A DNA stretch of 44,407 nt from a virus (taxonomy: Duplodnaviria > Heunggongvirae > Uroviricota > Caudoviricetes): positions 1 through 44,407 of the IMG/VR virus record IMGVR_UViG_3300010279_000003. The stretch is one strand, 5' to 3'. Below the pieces are notes generated by a model, which was not told where the DNA came from, did not search any database, and saw nothing but the letters and a program-made list of their open reading frames with translations. Below, piece after piece: positions 8,922 through 33,901 of this stretch (within the stretch, counting starts at the first letter, position 1; each line of letters begins with the position of its first letter). A program made the position numbers and the translations under genes.

Positions 8922-8950
8922 ACTATAATAGCGAACTATTCACTTGTCAA
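8922..8950 (-). promoter_or_regulatory. Sigma70-like promoter, class A (TTGACA-N17-TATAGT)
   Basis: Read on minus strand; spacer contains GAATAGTT as in the 6782..6810 copy. Confidence 0.55.
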
Positions 8951-9014: not shown

Positions 9015-9230
9015 ATGCAACCATCTGAACTAGGCATCCGTGTAGAACAGCGCCGTAAAGAACTCGGCATTTCCCAACGCCGTCTGGCGGTGCTGACCGG
9101 GGTTTCCCAGGGCGCAATTAACCAGCTGGCACTTGGGGTAACCCAGGACGTCCGCCCGGCAACGCTGTTTAAACTGGCGGAAGTGCTGGAGGTAGACGCC
9201 AAGTGGCTGGCGCTAGGTGAAGGGGCTTAA
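9015..9230 (+). CDS. XRE-family helix-turn-helix transcriptional regulator (Cro/CI-like)
   Basis: 71 aa, HTH_3 signature (LGISQRRLAVLTGVSQGAINQL); AAGGAG RBS. Confidence 0.8.
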   Translation: MQPSELGIRVEQRRKELGISQRRLAVLTGVSQGAINQLALGVTQDVRPATLFKLAEVLEVDAKWLALGEGA

Positions 9231-11546: not shown

Positions 11547-11780
11547 TTATTCCAGGTCTTCTAAAGTAGCTGTCATTCCGCGAACTTCGGCAACAGCACT
11601 ATATTTCCCGCCAACATTTTTCACGACACCAGATTTAACCAGCACCTTCAACGACCCTTCAATAATGGCGGAACTATAGTACTTAAAATAACTACGCCGC
11701 AAGTCCATAACGCTGCACGACCCTTTTTTACGTGTTAGCGAAACGACCGCCGTAAATACCCGCGACTGGAACTCGGTCAT
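11547..11780 (-). CDS. Hypothetical protein
   Basis: 77 aa; ends ...TLEDLE, the same tail as two replication proteins. Confidence 0.5.
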   Translation of the reverse strand: MTEFQSRVFTAVVSLTRKKGSCSVMDLRRSYFKYYSSAIIEGSLKVLVKSGVVKNVGGKYSAVAEVRGMTATLEDLE

Positions 11781-11947
11781 TTCACGTTCTCCTTAATCCA
11801 CGCTTCCACTTTCTCCGGGTCAAACGTACCTGGCTGACGACGGCCCATAATGCGAATACAACAATCCGGGAACTTCCCACTCTTTAACCAGTTATTCAGC
11901 GTGCGACGGGTAACCCCGATGCGCTCAGCTACCTCATTCTGCGTCAT
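11777..11947 (-). CDS. AlpA/excisionase-like HTH DNA-binding protein
   Basis: ~56-aa ORF not in the ORF track (below its length cutoff); motif VAERIGVTRRTLNNWLKSGKFP; first gene after promoter 11980..12008. Confidence 0.5.
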   Translation of the reverse strand: MTQNEVAERIGVTRRTLNNWLKSGKFPDCCIRIMGRRQPGTFDPEKVEAWIKENVK

Positions 11948-12378: not shown

Positions 12379-12407
12379 TTGCACACCCCAATATAATAGG
12401 ATACTAT
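12379..12407 (+). promoter_or_regulatory. Sigma70-like promoter, class B (TTGCAC-N17-TACTAT)
   Basis: Spacer ...AATATAATAGGATACTATTCA; same family found six times. Confidence 0.6.
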
Positions 12408-12441
12408 TCACTTATCGAAACGAGACAGAGGAGTGAGGGTT

Positions 12442-13503: not shown

Positions 13504-13532
13504 TTGCACACTGGGATAGAATAGGCTACTAT
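13504..13532 (+). promoter_or_regulatory. Sigma70-like promoter, class B (TTGCAC-N17-TACTAT)
   Basis: Followed by conserved leader AAACGAGAGGAGAGACAGAG then ATG at 13563. Confidence 0.6.
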
Positions 13533-13562
13533 TCATTTACACAAACGAGAGGAGAGACAGAG

Positions 13563-17339: not shown

Positions 17340-17510
17340 ATGTTCAGTGACATCAACGCAGCAATCGAAGAAGCAATATGGCGGCGCTATAACGGCGAGC
17401 AACAGCGGCACTTTTGCCTCGTGCAACGCGGTAACATGATTGCCGTAGTGCAGGACCGGGATAACAAATATCCGAATGCGATGTGGTCAACGAGGAATTT
17501 CTTAGGATGA
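17340..17510 (+). CDS. Small hypothetical protein (~56 aa)
   Basis: Short ORF, ATGA overlap downstream. Confidence 0.35.
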   Translation: MFSDINAAIEEAIWRRYNGEQQRHFCLVQRGNMIAVVQDRDNKYPNAMWSTRNFLG

Positions 17511-17749
17511 TTACCAGCATTCCTAACCTGATTAAAGAATTCGGCACGATGGCGGAGACATGCCGACAAACTGGCCTCAACGAAATGACGATTGCTAAGT
17601 ACAGCAAAGACGTGAAATGTGAGCGCCACGTAATTTATAACAACCGTCTTATGACGCATGTTAAGACAAGCCCGGTGTTATTCACTCGCCGCGGTATCAC
17701 TAAAACTGAGCAACGCATTGCTAAAGAGGAGAACGAATGCGGCTACTAA
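17507..17749 (+). CDS. Hypothetical protein
   Basis: ATG 17507 inside ORF-track ORF 17483..17749. Confidence 0.5.
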   Translation: MITSIPNLIKEFGTMAETCRQTGLNEMTIAKYSKDVKCERHVIYNNRLMTHVKTSPVLFTRRGITKTEQRIAKEENECGY

Positions 17750-21447: not shown

Positions 21448-21467
21448 CCCCTGTTTAAGTTATCTGA

Positions 21468-21496
21468 ATAGTACCCTATTATATTGGTGTCTGCAA
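21468..21496 (-). promoter_or_regulatory. Sigma70-like promoter, class B (TTGCAG-N17-TACTAT)
   Basis: Read on minus strand; about 45 bp nearly identical to the copy at 24318..24346. Confidence 0.6.
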
Positions 21497-22640: not shown

Positions 22641-22698
22641 AACCCCATGAAGGTATGCCTATCTCTGGCATCGACCAATCTTCATGGGGTTTTCTTAT
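22641..22698 (+). terminator. Long hairpin (12-bp stem AACCCCATGAAG/CTTCATGGGGTT) with T-rich tail
   Basis: Inverted repeat read directly; the ORF-track start at 22655 lies inside it. Confidence 0.45.
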
Positions 22699-22708
22699 AG
22701 GGTTTAAT

Positions 22709-23278
22709 ATGGGAATTGTTTTTGGTGTGGGTATTAACGATGTTTCACCAATAAGTTGCGGAGGGGTGCATATAGCGTCCTACGCCGTATGGAAGAACAT
22801 GTTAAAGAGGTGCTACGACAAGAAATGGCAGCAAAGAAACAGAACTTATATAGGTTGCCGCGTGTCGGACGATTGGTTGGTGTTCAGTAATTTCAAGGTC
22901 TGGTTTGATGATTTTTATGTACCTGGGTGGCAGATAGATAAGGATTTACTTAACCCGGGAAATAAGGTTTACGATGCTTCTAACTGTGTTTTCATCCCTA
23001 AATCCCTCAATACTTTCCTAACAGCCCACGACGCTCTTCGAGGCGAACACCCACTCGGCGTACATTTCCATAAACAAAAGAAAAGATTCATCGCTCAAGT
23101 ATCCGTGGATGGCGTATCTGAACAAATAGGCGCTTACGAAACCGCTCAAGAGGCACACGTAGCATGGTTTCATAGAAAAATTGAATTAGCATATGAATAC
23201 AAAGGTCTTTGCGATAGCATAGACCCACGCCTTTTCGAAGGCGTCTTACGTAAGATTAACTCAATGAAAGAGGTTTAG
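22709..23278 (+). CDS. AP2-domain protein, homing-endonuclease-like
   Basis: C-terminal AP2-like segment (GVHFHKQKKRFIAQVSVDGVSEQIGAYETAQEAHVAW); no clear HNH histidines seen in the N-terminal part. Confidence 0.5.
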   Translation: MGIVFGVGINDVSPISCGGVHIASYAVWKNMLKRCYDKKWQQRNRTYIGCRVSDDWLVFSNFKVWFDDFYVPGWQIDKDLLNPGNKVYDASNCVFIPKSLNTFLTAHDALRGEHPLGVHFHKQKKRFIAQVSVDGVSEQIGAYETAQEAHVAWFHRKIELAYEYKGLCDSIDPRLFEGVLRKINSMKEV

Positions 23279-23281
23279 TTT

Positions 23282-23740
23282 ATGGGCTTTTTTAAAGTAA
23301 CTGATGTGCCGTCGCGTCGCGTAGTCCAGTACGCCCGTGTATCCGGTTCTGGTGAGAACGTAACCTACGTTGAAGATGAAAGTGTACTAGGTACACCTGT
23401 AGACGAGATGCCGTATGCGGACAAGACCGGTATCGCACTCTCTGCTGCTGGTATGCTTTATGAGATTCCGTATCTGGCAGATGCTGGTGATGTGTATTTC
23501 TCTGTGCAACCGAAAGACACCGAGCTGGTCGACGGTAGCGCCACCATCACTGTCGAAGTTAAGGCGGGTAAAGCGCCGTATGTACTGACCTGGTACAAAG
23601 ACGGGAAGGAAGTGGTGAACGCCCCGGAAGAGGCTCTGTCTCTGACTGTTAATGCGGCTGGTGAATACTTCGTTAAAGTTACTGATGCCGATGGTGCGGA
23701 GGCCGTAAGCAAAGCGGCGAAGGTCTCTAAACCAGGATGA
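23282..23740 (+). CDS. Ig-like domain protein (possible capsid decoration)
   Basis: YVLTWYKDGKEV...GEYFVKVTDADG pattern typical of Ig-like domains. Confidence 0.5.
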   Translation: MGFFKVTDVPSRRVVQYARVSGSGENVTYVEDESVLGTPVDEMPYADKTGIALSAAGMLYEIPYLADAGDVYFSVQPKDTELVDGSATITVEVKAGKAPYVLTWYKDGKEVVNAPEEALSLTVNAAGEYFVKVTDADGAEAVSKAAKVSKPG

Positions 23741-23744
23741 TAAA

Positions 23745-23773
23745 AGGCCCCATAATGGGGCCTTAGTTTTATT
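23745..23773. terminator. Bidirectional intrinsic terminator
   Basis: Stem AGGCCCC/GGGGCCT, loop ATAAT, T-rich tail. Confidence 0.6.
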
Positions 23774-24290
23774 TAAATCGCGCAGGCATTAACACCATAA
23801 AGGCCGTGTTTGAAAATTGTATTTTGCATCCTCTGGTTTGGTCCTGGAAATCGAAACGAGCAATTTCATTTTTGTATGCCTTAGAAATCTTGTACGCGTC
23901 TGCCAAATAGCGCAGAGTGAACCCTATACTGTCGACAACACCCGGTGTGATGTGCGCCACGCGTCTCCAGTCAGGAAAGTTTCCTTCTACAACATCTACC
24001 GGAAGTGTACATATAAGCGCACGATTATCGTCATAGAAAGATACACTGCCGTTGTCGTGGTTTACCTCTGCGTAGTTAAATTTAGAAGGCTCTCTCCCTT
24101 TGATGTCTATGAGAGTCCCTTTCTCAACGTTGGTCTTCACATTGTCGCAGAACAATCTATGACTGTCCGTAGACACTATCAATCCTTCAGGGTCTATGTA
24201 AAAAGCGTTCAAATAGTAGCGCACATCATTTTTAGCCCTGCATATTTTCGCCCCTACATACGCAGGGAAAGTAATTACTGTAGTAACCAT
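23769..24290 (-). CDS. Truncated beta sliding clamp (DnaN) homologue: domain II plus the C-terminal half of domain III, no domain I
   Basis: Matches to E. coli DnaN as I recall it: DVRYYLN, TDSHRL (vs TDGHRL), FPDWRRV (vs FPDYRRV), IGF..YL.D, C-terminal VLMPARF (vs VVMPMRL); own promoter and AGGAG RBS. Confidence 0.7.
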   Translation of the reverse strand: MVTTVITFPAYVGAKICRAKNDVRYYLNAFYIDPEGLIVSTDSHRLFCDNVKTNVEKGTLIDIKGREPSKFNYAEVNHDNGSVSFYDDNRALICTLPVDVVEGNFPDWRRVAHITPGVVDSIGFTLRYLADAYKISKAYKNEIARFDFQDQTRGCKIQFSNTAFMVLMPARFK

Positions 24291-24317
24291 TTATCATCTC
24301 CTGTTTAAGTTAACTGA

Positions 24318-24346
24318 ATAGTACCCTATTATATTGGTGTGCGCAA
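24318..24346 (-). promoter_or_regulatory. Sigma70-like promoter, class B (TTGCGC-N17-TACTAT) driving the DnaN-like gene
   Basis: Read on minus strand; conserved leader TTAACTTAAACAGGAG follows. Confidence 0.6.
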
Positions 24347-24399
24347 ACTATTTGTTTATATATTCCAGTTATTCCGCTCAATTGTAAATGTTGGAATAA

Positions 24400-24413
24400 A
24401 CTATTCGAATAGT
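24400..24413. promoter_or_regulatory. Perfect 14-bp palindrome ACTATTCGAATAGT (operator-like)
   Basis: Read directly; built from the ACTATTC element found in the promoter family; abuts TTGACT at 24413. Confidence 0.5.
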
Positions 24414-24441
24414 TGACTTTTCACTAAAAATATGATAAGCT
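24413..24441 (+). promoter_or_regulatory. Candidate promoter (TTGACT-N17-TAAGCT)
   Basis: Consensus -35, weak -10; same TAAG-T type -10 as the candidate at 12024..12052. Confidence 0.35.
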
Positions 24442-24447
24442 CCACCT

Positions 24448-24645
24448 GAGCTTGTGAAGTATGAGCAAGCGACCGCGGCGCGGCAGGTAACGGAGCTGGA
24501 CGTAAGTCCTGAGTGTAGTTACGCTGACGCGTTCGGAAGGGCCATACTCTATTGCTTGTGTAAAAAGTAACTGGTTTACTGAGATTACGCCGTTTCTATG
24601 TTTAAATGATAAGGACTAGCGCCCCGCTTTAAGGCGGGGCTTTAC
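24448..24645 (+). ncRNA. Candidate non-coding transcript or leader (~200 nt) between promoter and terminator
   Basis: No ORF of 60 aa or more in the ORF track; only very short ORFs or a 37-codon GTG frame without convincing RBS. Confidence 0.3.
24621..24645 (+). terminator. Intrinsic terminator upstream of the spanin genes
   Basis: Stem GCCCCGC/GCGGGGC, loop TTTAAG, T-rich tail. Confidence 0.55.
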
Positions 24646-24664
24646 TTATCGAGAAAGGGGAAAC

Positions 24665-25051
24665 ATGAATCTTAAAGCAACTGTCGTAGCCGGAGCATGT
24701 TTCGTCGTCCTAGCCTACGCACACGGCATCTATCAATACCGCAGCGGCTGGGGTGAAGGCCGTGCTAATCTCGTTTCGCAGCAACAGCAGAAAGCACAGG
24801 CTGAGCTGACGAAGAAAACACAACGGCAGCAGCAGGATGAATCAAAGGCCGCCGCCGCTGACAACGAAGGCAAGACGAAATCAGAGGTGATTACCCGTGA
24901 AGTCGTTAAGTACATTAAAACGCCTGGCCGCAGCGTGTGCACTTTCGACGATGCTCGCGTCCTGCTCAAGTCCCACGCCGTTGCCAACGCCAATTCCATC
25001 CCCGGATACGACGATGATGCAGCCGCCGTGCAAACTGGCACCGCCAAGTAG
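24665..25051 (+). CDS. i-spanin (Rz-like)
   Basis: N-terminal transmembrane segment, then charged Q/K/E-rich periplasmic region; 128 aa. Confidence 0.7.
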   Translation: MNLKATVVAGACFVVLAYAHGIYQYRSGWGEGRANLVSQQQQKAQAELTKKTQRQQQDESKAAAADNEGKTKSEVITREVVKYIKTPGRSVCTFDDARVLLKSHAVANANSIPGYDDDAAAVQTGTAK

Positions 25052-25160
25052 CGACGCTGACGAGGATTTAGCTATCGACGTTCAGAACGCCGAATGTGTA
25101 CGGCAACTGAGACTGAAAGTGTTCATGTTGCAGGATTACGTGAGGAATATTCTGGAATAG
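24897..25160 (+). CDS. o-spanin (Rz1-like lipoprotein), overlapping the i-spanin in another frame
   Basis: Lipobox LASC after basic N-region, proline-rich mature part; GTG start 24897 with GAGGTG RBS. Confidence 0.65.
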   Translation: MKSLSTLKRLAAACALSTMLASCSSPTPLPTPIPSPDTTMMQPPCKLAPPSSDADEDLAIDVQNAECVRQLRLKVFMLQDYVRNILE

Positions 25161-25242
25161 TTGCCTTGTATGTTGGAATAATTTATTCTTGACATGTAAA
25201 TCCGGGAGGCCCGGATTCCAACGTCCAGGGGACATACTGACT

Positions 25243-25944
25243 ATGAATCGTTTTTTACACTATCCGTTCCAGGAAGAAGCTGGGGCAGAAGATAAATCTG
25301 GCGGTGGCGACGCTCCAAAAATGTTCACCGCTGAAGAAGTTCAGGCGATGATTGAGAAAGAAGTTGCCGGACTTAAGGCCAATCAGGAAGCATTGCTGGC
25401 GGAGAAGAAAGAAGCCGCCCGTAAAGCAAAAGAGGCCGAAGAGGAACGTCAGCGCGCGCACCAGGAGGCGCTAAAAGCCGCCGGTAAGATGGACGAGTTC
25501 GAAAAGACGATTCGTAGCCAGTATGACCCGGTGTTAGCCGAGAAAGATGGTCGCATAACCAAAATGGCTGAGCGCATCCTCGGCAGCGAACGTAAAGCGG
25601 TGTTAGGCTCTTTCGCAGGTGACTTTATTACCCCGGAAGCAGTAGACATTCTTGCTCCGTTCGTTAAGACTGAGTTCGAAGGTGATGATGTGGTTACTAA
25701 GTTTGTTGGGCCAGACGGCGGTGTAATCACGACTGACCCTGAACAGTTCCGCAAATACCTGCGCGAACACAAAGCGTTTTCGCATTTGATTAAAGCAAAT
25801 GCAGCTTCCGGCGGCGGGGCTTCCGGTGGCAAAGGCGGCGGGGCCGCACCAGCGTTTAAAGACATGAGTGAAGCGGAGCGTTTAGCTCTGTATAAATCGA
25901 ACCCTGCCGAATTTGAACGGCAACTTAAAGCCCTGAGGAAATAA
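25243..25944 (+). CDS. Putative scaffolding protein
   Basis: Charged coiled-coil-like protein immediately upstream of the capsid gene; ATG 25243 inside ORF-track ORF 25189..25944. Confidence 0.55.
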   Translation: MNRFLHYPFQEEAGAEDKSGGGDAPKMFTAEEVQAMIEKEVAGLKANQEALLAEKKEAARKAKEAEEERQRAHQEALKAAGKMDEFEKTIRSQYDPVLAEKDGRITKMAERILGSERKAVLGSFAGDFITPEAVDILAPFVKTEFEGDDVVTKFVGPDGGVITTDPEQFRKYLREHKAFSHLIKANAASGGGASGGKGGGAAPAFKDMSEAERLALYKSNPAEFERQLKALRK

Positions 25945-25946
25945 TA

Positions 25947-26996
25947 ATGGCAATTACCACTATCGGCGATATCGTAACTGGCAACATCCCGGTCCTGGCG
26001 TCTTATATGACCGAGGACCCGGTAGAAAAAACCGCGTTCTTCCAGTCCGGTATTCTTACCCCTACTCCGTACGCCGCCGAGATTGCCCGCGGCCCGTCCA
26101 ACGTCGCTAACATTCCTTTCTGGAAAGCGATTGATACTTCTATCGAGCCTAACTACTCGAACGACGTATACCAGGACATCGCTACCCCGCGTAACGTGCA
26201 AACCGGCGAGATGATGGCGCGCGTTGCATACCTGAACGAAGGTTTTGGCCAGGCGGACCTGACTGTCGAACTGACCAGCCAGAACCCGCTGCAATCCGTA
26301 GCGTCCCGTCTGGATAACTTCTGGCAGCGCCAGGCGCAACGCCGTCTGATCGCTACCGCGCTCGGTCTGTACAATGACAACGTAGCCGCTACCGACGCAT
26401 ACCACGAGCAGAATGACATGGTTGTAGACGTGTCTGCTACTCTGGGCTTCGACGCAGGTGCGTTCATCGACGCCACCCAGACTATGGGTGATGCGCTGAT
26501 GGGCAACGGCGGAGAAGTGCTGGGTGCTATCGCGATGCACAGCTTCGTTTATGCGCAGGCCCGTAAGCAGCAGCTTATTGACTTCATCAAAGACGCCGAC
26601 AACGACACACTGTTCGCCACCTACCAGGGTTACCGCGTGATTGTTGACGACAGCATGACCGTAGTCGGCACCGGCTCTAGCCGTAAGTTCATCTCCATTA
26701 TCTTCGGTAACGGCGCTATCGGTTACGGTGAAGGTTCTCCGTCCAACCCGTTGGAATACGAGCGCGAAGCGTCTCGCGGCAACGGCGGTGGGGTAGAAAC
26801 CCTGTGGACCCGTAAGACCTGGTTGCTGCACCCACTGGGCTACAGCTTTACCAGCGCAGTAATCACCGGTAACGGCACCGAGACCGTCGCACGTTCTGCT
26901 TCATGGCAGGACCTGGCGAACGCCTCCAACTGGAACCGCGTTGTTGAGCGTAAGCATGTACCGATTGCCTTCCTGGTAACTGGTGTCGGTGCTTAA
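25947..26996 (+). CDS. Major capsid protein
   Basis: 349 aa after scaffold gene, followed by a strong terminator; assignment by position and size. Confidence 0.7.
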   Translation: MAITTIGDIVTGNIPVLASYMTEDPVEKTAFFQSGILTPTPYAAEIARGPSNVANIPFWKAIDTSIEPNYSNDVYQDIATPRNVQTGEMMARVAYLNEGFGQADLTVELTSQNPLQSVASRLDNFWQRQAQRRLIATALGLYNDNVAATDAYHEQNDMVVDVSATLGFDAGAFIDATQTMGDALMGNGGEVLGAIAMHSFVYAQARKQQLIDFIKDADNDTLFATYQGYRVIVDDSMTVVGTGSSRKFISIIFGNGAIGYGEGSPSNPLEYEREASRGNGGGVETLWTRKTWLLHPLGYSFTSAVITGNGTETVARSASWQDLANASNWNRVVERKHVPIAFLVTGVGA

Positions 26997-27751: not shown

Positions 27752-27931
27752 ATGACAGATAATTATGTAATCCGTGAAAAGTACACCCACGTCGATATTG
27801 TCGATGGCCAGGTAATGCCCGTCCGCGGTGTTGTGGAAGCGGATGCGCTGGATGCAGCACAACCGGACAACGAAGAAGCGCACAACAACGGCGGTGGCAC
27901 TAAGCGTCGTCGCCGTAAGTCAGAGGAATAA
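27752..27931 (+). CDS. Small hypothetical protein (~59 aa)
   Basis: Short ORF with AAGGAAAGG RBS. Confidence 0.35.
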   Translation: MTDNYVIREKYTHVDIVDGQVMPVRGVVEADALDAAQPDNEEAHNNGGGTKRRRRKSEE

Positions 27932-27934
27932 TTT

Positions 27935-28447
27935 ATGCCGCTAATCGTGGAAACTGGGGCAATCGTCCCGAATGCCGACAGTTACATTAGTCTGGCTGAC
28001 GCCCGCGCGTTAGCGGCTAATTATGGTCTTGAGTTACCCGCTGACGATACTGCCGCCGAAGTAGCCTTGCGCAACGGCGCTACTTATGTCGGGCTTGTAG
28101 AACCGCAGATGTGTGGTCGTCGTGTATCCGCGGAGCAGTCCCTGGCGTATCCTCGCACTGGTGTAACGTTGAATGGTTTTCCTGTAGCCAATAACGTAAT
28201 CCCTAAACAGGTAATTCTTGCGCAGGTAATCGCCGCTGCTACATATGGTGCCGGTACTGAGGTGCGGGCTAACTCTGATGGGCGTTCCGTGCAGACTGAG
28301 CGTGTCGAGGGTGCGGTAACAGTGACCTACTTCAACAACGGCAGCAGTGGTGCTACGACCGCGATTACCGCTGCAGACGACGCCTTACGCCCGTTACTGT
28401 GCGGTGGTCTTAACAATGGCTTCTCGTTTAATGTGTACCGGGGTTAA
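27935..28447 (+). CDS. Hypothetical structural protein (possible head-tail connector)
   Basis: 170 aa; position in head-to-tail joining region. Confidence 0.45.
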   Translation: MPLIVETGAIVPNADSYISLADARALAANYGLELPADDTAAEVALRNGATYVGLVEPQMCGRRVSAEQSLAYPRTGVTLNGFPVANNVIPKQVILAQVIAAATYGAGTEVRANSDGRSVQTERVEGAVTVTYFNNGSSGATTAITAADDALRPLLCGGLNNGFSFNVYRG

Positions 28448-33831: not shown

Positions 33832-33872
33832 GGGGTAGCTCCTGTTTGAGTTAACATTGTTGGTGTAAGTGA

Positions 33873-33901
33873 ATAGTATCCTATTATGTTGGGGTGTGCA
33901 A
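33873..33901 (-). promoter_or_regulatory. Sigma70-like promoter, class B (TTGCAC-N17-TACTAT) driving the accessory operon
   Basis: Read on minus strand; spacer ACCCCAACATAATAGGA. Confidence 0.6.

Follow-up and report, generated by a model that had tools for sequence, protein, structure and literature searches.

Two predicted sigma-70 promoters share GGAATA operator-like sites at the spanin and scaffold genes of a Kagunavirus

Analysis of a 44,407-nucleotide (nt) stretch of phage DNA, the IMG/VR record IMGVR_UViG_3300010279_000003 (hereafter the window), points to two promoters of the host sigma-70 type, one (P1) preceding the spanin genes and the other (P2) preceding the genes of the scaffolding protein and the major capsid protein. 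On balance, we favor the reading that the two promoters share GGAATA operator-like sites for one regulator. In this model, P1 and P2 would restart rightward transcription after a bidirectional terminator at positions 23744-23764. P1 would transcribe a structured leader of ~200 nt and then the spanin genes, and P2 would start at ~25196, 3-5 nt before a stem-loop that probably stabilizes the scaffold/capsid mRNA or controls its translation. The array of GGAATA sites over both promoters would be bound by a single DNA-binding protein with sequence specificity, probably a dimer and probably encoded by the phage, by which P1 and P2 would be co-regulated. The transcript starts, the binding of a protein and its regulatory effect at P1 and P2 are what we infer from the arrangement and conservation described below.

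The window represents an E. coli phage of the genus Kagunavirus (Guernseyvirinae). Its region 23700-25400 is 99% identical to that of Escherichia phage vB_EcoS_fPoEco01 and matches 326 phage records, which belong to Kagunavirus and related Guernseyvirinae with E. coli or Salmonella as hosts. Using the i-spanin protein, 47 loci with identities from 100% down to 61% were retrieved, and both motif regions were aligned. Column statistics refer to 45 unique relatives for the P1 region and to the full-length sequences among 44 unique relatives for the P2 region, and are given as the fraction of non-consensus bases. The lineages compared are the Kagunavirus clade, the Jersey clade, Salmonella phage SE1, Hafnia phage TS33 and Serratia phages, including Smarc3.

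P1 presents the sigma-70 layout with a -35 element TTGACT (24413-24418, + strand) that matches the consensus at 5/6 positions, a 17-nt spacer and an extended -10 element TGaTAAGCT (24433-24441, +). The hexamer TAAGCT matches TATAAT at three of six positions, namely the key T, the A and the final T. Among the relatives, the TG is invariant, the following "n" is free (0.42), TAAGCT is near-invariant (0.033) and the remaining spacer varies (0.19), with a value of 0.037 for the -35 element. The equivalents read T(A/T)GACT-N17-TGnTACGCT in the Jersey clade, where the -35 element is either TAGACT or TTGACT, and TTTACT-N17-TGaTAACCT in TS33. Moreover, P1 ranks first by score among the promoter candidates of the window, Jersey and TS33. 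Judged from its sequence, P1 is an ordinary extended -10 sigma-70 promoter with the conservation pattern expected of a working one, and should need no activator because of its near-consensus -35 element and conserved extended -10 element. An earlier note on this DNA had proposed activator-dependent late promoters in which two TTGAC(A/T) hexamers serve as -35 elements with no good -10 element; for the first of the two, it missed TAAGCT, 17 nt past TTGACT, and the TGa before it.

For the second hexamer, TTGACA at 25189-25194 (+), the same observation holds. A search for an acceptable -10 element 16-19 nt past TTGACA found none, as the GC-rich 3' arm of a hairpin lies there without an A at -11. 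This hexamer is itself not conserved; the Jersey clade has TTGTTA or TTGTTG in its place, and the Serratia phages and TS33 lack it. One helical half-turn upstream of TTGACA lies a different pair, the proposed -35 element TTGCCT (25161-25166, +), invariant in all full-length relatives, and the proposed -10 element TATTCT (25184-25189, +), likewise invariant, which together predict a start at ~25196. The pair TTGCCT-N17-TATTCT is found in the Kagunavirus clade, the Jersey clade and SE1, and reads TTGCTT-N17-TATTCT in TS33. Three Serratia phages preserve TTGCCC-N17-TATATT around an otherwise unrelated spacer, and in each of the five lineages the hairpin core lies 11-13 nt past the end of the -10 element. 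P2 thus shows the conserved hexamer pair of a sigma-70 promoter, each hexamer with 4/6 matches to the consensus. In SE1, a gene on the opposite strand is inserted between the spanin and the scaffold genes, and the module is preserved in full from AGGAATAGTTGCCTT to the ATG; since it is kept despite this insertion, the P2 module must have its own promoter. An extended -10-like sequence, TGGAATAAT (25174-25182, +), scores equally as a core of P2. It is ranked second because it has no counterpart in the Serratia phages and its TG is lost in TS33, and hence the core of P2 is most likely TTGCCT-N17-TATTCT.

The sites shared by the two promoters had been recognized in the earlier note as a repeated 12-mer, ATGTTGGAATAA, which is present exactly twice in the window, at 24388-24399 and 25170-25181 (+); the coordinates given for copy 1 were right, and copy 2 lies one base lower than reported. 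As described there, the TTGAC(A/T) hexamers lie downstream of the 12-mer, 13 nt past copy 1 for TTGACT and 7 nt past copy 2 for TTGACA. By itself, the repetition is weak evidence because the window holds 265 pairs of identical same-strand 12-mers, and even its shuffles hold 66. Among 1000 dinucleotide shuffles, however, only 16 contain two separate TTGAC[AT] sites that are each preceded within 30 nt by the same 12-mer. The strongest evidence beyond chance comes from comparative conservation, which holds for the core of the motif and not for the 12-mer as a unit. At copy 1, GGAATAA is conserved (0.051) and the ATGTT part is variable (0.156); among the relatives, this 5' part reads ATGTT, ACGTT, ATCTT or ATGCT, and ATTCA or TAAGT in the Jersey clade. 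The first bases of copy 2 fall within the sole variable stretch of its module, 25167-25173 (0.286). As judged from these alignments, the conserved unit is a palindrome, GGAATA-N3-TATTC, together with flanking GGAATA hexamers. It may be added that the 12-mer reads as ATG-TTG-GAA-TAA.

Further inspection revealed such an array at each promoter. At P1, two GGAATA hexamers in reverse orientation (TATTCCAGTTATTCC, 24361-24375, - strand) follow each other with a 9-bp period at about -87 to -73 from the predicted start, and are near-invariant (mean 0.013 over the 45 unique relatives). They are assigned to the rightward unit because they are retained in genomes that lack the neighboring leftward beta-clamp-like cassette. 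The copy-1 palindrome GGAATA-AAC-TATTC (GGAATAAACTATTC, 24393-24406) is centered at about -48.5 from the predicted start and reads GGAATActtTATTC in the Jersey clade. A perfect 16-bp palindrome, AACTATTCGAATAGTT (24399-24414), adjoins and overlaps the -35 element; it is limited to the Kagunavirus clade, as the Jersey clade has AAAAAG there. At P2, two direct GGAATA hexamers 10 bp apart (GGAATATTCTGGAATAG, 25144-25160, +) cover the last codons and the stop codon of the o-spanin gene and adjoin the -35 element. Over this segment, 5/6 third-codon positions are invariant, compared to 2/31 in the coding sequence just upstream. In addition, SE1 still has AGGAATAG beside TTGCCTT, though the spanin gene is not adjacent there, and therefore the GGAATAG beside the P2 -35 element is not merely a spanin stop codon. 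The copy-2 palindrome GGAATA-ATT-TATTC (GGAATAATTTATTC, 25175-25188) covers the 3' part of the spacer and the -10 element; it is invariant in the Kagunavirus clade, the Jersey clade and SE1, and reads AGAATAATTTATTCT in TS33. Also invariant is TGGAATAATT in the P2 spacer, beside the 7-nt variable stretch. Both promoters have GAATAG directly before the -35 element, TTGACT at P1 and TTGCCT at P2 (GAATAGTTGACT and GAATAGTTGCCT). The layout of the hexamers varies by lineage and the hexamer itself persists: TS33 has at P1 a perfect GGAATAATTTATTCC and two direct GGAATAA repeats adjoining the -35 element, and Jersey has five hexamers at P2. The P2 palindrome is absent in the Serratia phages, and the Serratia lineage as such lacks the motif and the clusters of GGAATA hexamers.

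A genome-wide search found the array at these two loci only, and not as the signature of a wider set of late promoters that the earlier note would have predicted. GGAATANNNTATTC has two exact matches in the window, which are the two palindromes. Clusters of at least three GGAATA per 60 bp occur at these two loci only in the window, Bas70 and Jersey, and about 1% of shuffles give at least one such cluster; palindrome plus hexamer clusters are confined to P1 and P2 in the window, Bas70, Jersey and TS33. Altogether, the GGAATA sites probably behave as protein-binding sites, being palindromic or arrayed, conserved amid drift and limited to two promoters. Single resembling sequences occur elsewhere in the window and are probably coincidental. 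A one-mismatch copy of the palindrome, GGAATAATTTATGC at 27925-27938, forms the ribosome-binding site (RBS) and start codon of the head-tail adaptor gene. A third TTGGAATAA on the minus strand (6823-6815) makes up the last three codons (Leu-Glu-stop) of an exonuclease open reading frame (ORF) and is followed after 4 nt by the TTGACA of a consensus early promoter; the o-spanin likewise ends in CTGGAATAG (Leu-Glu-stop). The minus-strand TTGACA sequences at 8950 and 6810 belong to near-consensus early promoters, TTGACA-N17-TATAGT, that carry an operator-like GAATAGTTnGCTATT in the spacer.

Downstream of P2 lies a stem-loop, AATCCGGG-AGG-CCCGGATT (25199-25217, +), whose 8-bp stem extends the core ATCCGGG-AGG-CCCGGAT at 25200-25216; the perfect hairpin reported in the earlier note is this core, displaced by one base. 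Given the predicted start, it would begin 3-5 nt into the RNA, and it is the dominant helix in the minimum free energy (MFE) fold of 25196-25248 (-15.5 kcal/mol for the whole fold). The retrieved loci hold 12 sequence variants of the stem-loop, which have the CCGGG/CCCGG core in common and differ freely at the first loop base. Stem pairs 6 and 7 stay paired via double changes (T-A, T-G, A-T, G-C or G-T at one; A-T, C-G, T-A or T-G at the other), and TS33 has a wholly different stem, GAGTGGGG/CCCTACTC, around the same AGG loop. Compensatory changes are found in at least four lineages. No U-tract follows the stem-loop in any lineage, the tails being ATTCCAACG, TGTCCTAAAG, TATCAACG and CTCTTAAATAG, and a terminator scan did not return this hairpin; a rho-independent terminator, as which it is putatively annotated in phage vB_SenS-Ent1, is therefore unlikely. 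A 5' hairpin that stabilizes the mRNA or a translational operator fits best, and the covarying stem-loop near the predicted 5' end does not appear to be the part of a promoter as which the earlier note had taken it.

The 5' untranslated region (UTR) of the scaffold gene follows at 25218-25242 (+), with the RBS AGGGGA at 25227-25232 and the ATG at 25243. Its sequence GTCCAG(G/A)GGACA plus the RBS (GTCCAGGGGACAT..GACTATG) is conserved even in Serratia and Hafnia phages. In Serratia phage Smarc3, a tblastn search with the capsid protein of the window gave no match at E <= 1e-3, though the scaffold 5' UTR is conserved. Five Kagunavirus relatives have a different scaffold N-terminus that begins exactly at the start codon. 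Some records (e.g. Snoke) start the scaffold at the TTG of TTGACA (25189), giving 251 residues. The ATG at 25243, giving 233 residues, is the likely start because two extra nucleotides in the Jersey clade break the TTG frame.

The transcript predicted from P1 would begin with a structured leader of ~200 nt before the spanin genes (24448-24650, +). The predicted fold combines a hairpin at the 5' end with a long domain of three helices and a GC-rich hairpin (24621-24640); its MFE is -71.9 kcal/mol (z = -2.5), and 7/23 consensus pairs show compensatory changes across clades. A search of the whole window against Rfam gave no hits at gathering thresholds, and for 24300-25300 at E up to 10 only chance-level matches (E >= 0.9). 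In the terminator scan, the hairpin at 24621-24640 (+) appeared as GC-rich with a weak T-run, TTTACTT, before the spanin RBS. It shows compensatory changes in relatives, and its equivalents in Jersey, SE1 and TS33 are devoid of a U-tract. Since the T-run is weak here and there is none in those phages, we read this hairpin as a 5'-UTR structure rather than a firm terminator. The leader overlaps an annotated ORF of 36-38 residues (24454-24570), in which a 1-nt indel re-frames the N-terminus in close relatives and the C-terminal frame is kept.

Among the proteins encoded in the window, a small NinH-like protein, whose gene (17507-17749, +) lies shortly before the terminase genes, is a speculative candidate for the binder of the GGAATA sites. 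Its distribution agrees with that of the palindrome in 5/5 lineages: the window, Jersey, SE1 and TS33 encode it, and Serratia phage Smarc3 does not. It matches Pfam Phage_NinH at 20.7 bits (E = 4e-4), below the cut-off of 29.8, and RefSeq names its homologues "NinH family protein". Searches gave no NCBIfam hits and no sequence matches in the PDB, and its PHROG, 268, is of no known function. Its single-sequence AlphaFold model is unusable, with a predicted local distance difference test value of 63 and a predicted template modeling score of 0.29. Accordingly graded, the NinH-like protein is a weak candidate. It is unlikely that a dedicated phage regulator, perhaps this NinH/Fis-like protein, has its operator in the GGAATA arrays and switches the spanin and the scaffold/capsid promoters together. 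A helix-turn-helix protein of the excisionase-like HTH_17 family (11780-11947, 56 residues) is encoded in the Kagunavirus and Jersey clades but not in the Serratia phages, SE1 or TS33; as the latter two keep the motif, it was rejected as the binder. All five lineages, even the motif-less Serratia lineage, have a Cro-like HTH_3 protein; its gene in the window (9015-9227) is divergent from the minus-strand early promoter at 8950.

Several points weigh against a shared regulator of two sigma-70 promoters. The palindrome is centered at about -48.5 at P1 versus about -14.5 at P2, and these two positions do not sit easily with one mode of action. The Serratia relatives manage without the motif, and the HTH_17 candidate fails the phyletic test. 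The phyletic match of the NinH-like protein is at the level of clades with one independent absence, and many head genes share the pattern. The only RNA-seq study of Guernseyvirinae that we found gives coarse temporal classes without start sites (PMC12645636). Finally, TGGAATAAT scores equally as a core, and therefore part of the conservation could reflect a promoter and not an operator. The sign of the regulation could be either: the palindrome lies over the -10 element at P2, as for a repressor, and a hexamer adjoins the -35 element at both promoters, as for an activator.

The equal score of this sequence leads to an unlikely alternative in which the motif is itself core promoter: TGGAATAAT would be the extended -10 element of P2, the P1 copy a decayed or weak duplicate, and no dedicated regulator would be needed. 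TGGAATAAT indeed matches TGnTATAAT at 8/9 positions; in the window, Jersey and SE1 it shares the top score, and one variant among the loci has TGTAATAAT, changed at the "n" position only. However, the copies at P1 (AATAAA in the Kagunavirus clade, AATACT without TG in the Jersey clade) offer no usable -10 element, and the palindrome is still conserved there. At P2, the loss of TG in TS33 speaks against this alternative, as do the Serratia phages, which have no counterpart of TGGAATAAT while TTGCCC-N17-TATATT is preserved. It also leaves the extra hexamers at 24361-24375 and 25144-25160 unexplained.

Somewhat less probable still is the model of the earlier note, in which an activator of late genes binds ATGTTGGAATAA and brings RNA polymerase to a TTGAC(A/T) -35 element without a -10 element. 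It is right in that conserved promoter regions of late-type genes are concerned, that the motif lies upstream of both hexamers and that GGAATA adjoining the -35 element has the geometry of an activator site. The motif core is conserved in relatives, so the refutation by lack of conservation that the earlier note had allowed for fails, and a shared regulator site is indeed the most economical reading. Nevertheless, the core of P1 is intact, with a 5/6 -35 element and a conserved extended -10 element, and activators usually make up for a weak -35 element, not for a missing -10. At P2, TTGACA is not conserved, and its -10 position is occupied by the GC-rich hairpin arm lacking the A at -11. The spacing from motif to hexamer (13 nt versus 7 nt) differs by 6 bp, ATGTT is variable in relatives, and there are only two sites in the genome. 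The earlier interpretation is thus partly supported, and it was wrong on the hexamers, on the -10 element, on what the hairpin does, on how far the motif extends and on the genome-wide signature.

It is quite improbable that the copy-2 motif and the hairpin act as RNA, either as a processing site or as a terminator, in transcripts that read through from the spanin to the scaffold genes. Apart from the terminator annotation in vB_SenS-Ent1, this proposal can draw on GTTGGAAT (25172-25179, within the motif), which is perfectly complementary to ATTCCAAC (25215-25222) and could pair with it. However, this long-range pairing is confined to the Kagunavirus clade and the hairpin is followed by a U-tract in no lineage. 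In addition, copy 1 lies upstream of the predicted P1 start, and a read-through RNA cannot be required, as SE1 keeps the module despite the intervening opposite-strand gene. A chance or hitch-hiking duplicate without function is the least probable of all: 12-mer repeats are common in the window, as noted above, but the conservation data contradict it, as four lineages retain the core, even at 61% spanin identity, neighboring synonymous sites are frozen and the motif is found at two promoter regions only.

The two predicted promoters that we thus prefer to regard as sharing one regulator fit into the gene order as follows. A head morphogenesis gene and an inserted ORF (22655-23278) are followed by a Hoc-like decoration gene (23282-23740), the bidirectional terminator found by the terminator scan (23744-23764) and a leftward beta-clamp-like gene (23769-24290, -). 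Motif copy 1 lies in the 374-bp intergenic region between the latter and the spanins, which were assigned from the ORF list and the spanin annotation in relatives: the i-spanin (24665-25051, +) and the o-spanin embedded in or overlapping it (24897-25160, +). Motif copy 2 lies in the 82-bp gap between the o-spanin and the scaffolding protein gene (25243-25944, +), which precedes the major capsid protein gene (25947-26996, +), both assigned from ORFs and annotations. The beta-clamp-like gene and its leftward promoter (23769-24352) form a presence/absence cassette that is missing in ~10 close relatives and the Jersey clade; in the Jersey clade and the cassette-less relatives, the terminator of the Hoc gene directly adjoins TATTCCAGTTATTCC. 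Neither promoter region was matched in E. coli genomes, from which the motif is absent, and an origin from the host or a prophage was therefore rejected.

Guernseyvirinae such as Kagunavirus and Jerseyvirus are widely isolated with a view to phage therapy and biocontrol. No experimentally defined transcription program for this subfamily was found in the literature searched; the published annotations are predicted promoters, and at the two sites none of them appears to rely on the hexamer pairs put forward in this analysis. Phage Jersey has no promoter annotated at either locus, and Kagunavirus fBC-Eco01 has predicted "host promoter" features in the P1 intergenic region, matched by region only, and none before the scaffold gene. 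The present analysis provides testable core elements for the spanin and scaffold/capsid promoters, a compact candidate operator and a covarying 5'-UTR hairpin, which may be of use in phage engineering, such as expression cassettes and reporter phages, and in finding the regulator. If the arrays are indeed the operator of a dedicated phage regulator that switches both promoters together, this would give a simple late-gene switch for the Guernseyvirinae, which lack an RNA polymerase and a sigma factor of their own; if the regulator is NinH-like, the arrays would be the first defined regulatory target of a NinH-family protein.

Comparison with known systems places the two regions among familiar architectures. 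P1 resembles the extended -10 (TGn) sigma-70 promoters of E. coli and its phages in its TTGACT, 17-nt spacer and TGnTA.GCT, conserved at TG and the hexamer and not at "n"; it differs in that TAAGCT shares only 3/6 positions with TATAAT and that its activity and start are predicted. Layouts of the sigma-54, sigma-E, CII, Ogr and MotA types were compared informally, by eye against consensus sequences, and none fits. The 5' UTR of ompA exemplifies the 5'-terminal stabilizing stem-loops of bacterial mRNAs. The P2 hairpin is similar in having a GC-rich 8-bp stem 3-5 nt from the 5' end and in being kept by compensatory changes, but this 5' end is predicted and the conserved UTR could instead be a translational operator. 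For the latter, the autoregulation of the P22 scaffold is an analogy only.

With respect to the arrays, NanR binds the (GGTATA)3 operator of the E. coli sialic-acid regulon cooperatively as dimers (PMC8012715). The phage arrays likewise have a 6-bp unit with 2-4-bp spacers at promoters, and GGAATAACTGGAATA is similar to GGTATAACAGGTATA in layout. However, they read GGAATA and not GGTATA (position 3), have mixed orientations and also occur in Salmonella and Hafnia phages. A NanR operator, with at least two close GGTATA repeats, was rejected, as all hexamers of the phages are GGAATA, AGAATA or CGAATA. The lambda protein NinH forms a Fis-like dimer with a preference for 15-bp pseudo-palindromes of the form G-N13-C (PMC7166090). 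The phage palindrome shares the 15-bp span and the AT-rich core, and GGAATAATTTATTCC at P1 of TS33 is G-N13-C; by contrast, the 15th base in the window is T (P2) or G (P1) instead of C, and the internal positions depart from the Fis consensus.

The lambda pR'/Q and Pseudomonas AlpA modules (PMC9371919) offer a further parallel. As in these modules, P1 has a promoter, a leader of ~200 nt, a terminator-like hairpin and lysis (spanin) genes, and P2 has a conserved element between -35 and -10, where the binding elements of Q and AlpA sit. The leader hairpin is unlike theirs in being devoid of a U-tract in the other lineages, and no -10-like pause element (A at position 2, T at position 6) was found after either predicted start. 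Antitermination of this type was rejected: the analysis found no protein like Q or AlpA, and the only excisionase/HTH_17 protein, with its 56 residues, is too small for the role and is not encoded by SE1 and TS33, in which the motif persists.

Closest to hand is the repeated motif tgAATAGTa-ccTATTat, which PHIRE predicted as a "phage promoter" in Kagunavirus fBC-Eco01 (PMC9825357), a report with no mention of GGAATA-N3-TATTC sites. It is present in the window as an element of ~31 bp, TTGCACACcCCAATATAATAGGnTACTATTC, in at least five copies (leftward at 21466-21496, 24316-24346 and 33871-33901; rightward at 12379-12409 and 13504-13534), each 20-35 nt upstream of an RBS. The element reads TTGCAC-N17-TACTAT with an internal AATAG-N4-CTATT palindrome, and bears the name "phage promoter" though the phages encode no RNA polymerase. 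Similar to the GGAATA sites, it is repeated, promoter-associated, found in the same phages and made of GAATAG/CTATT half-sites; it differs in its 32-bp unit, its at least five copies before early or accessory genes and its 6-nt half-site spacing. Overall, the GGAATA-N3-TATTC element is a previously undescribed instance of an ordinary regulatory architecture, not a new principle.

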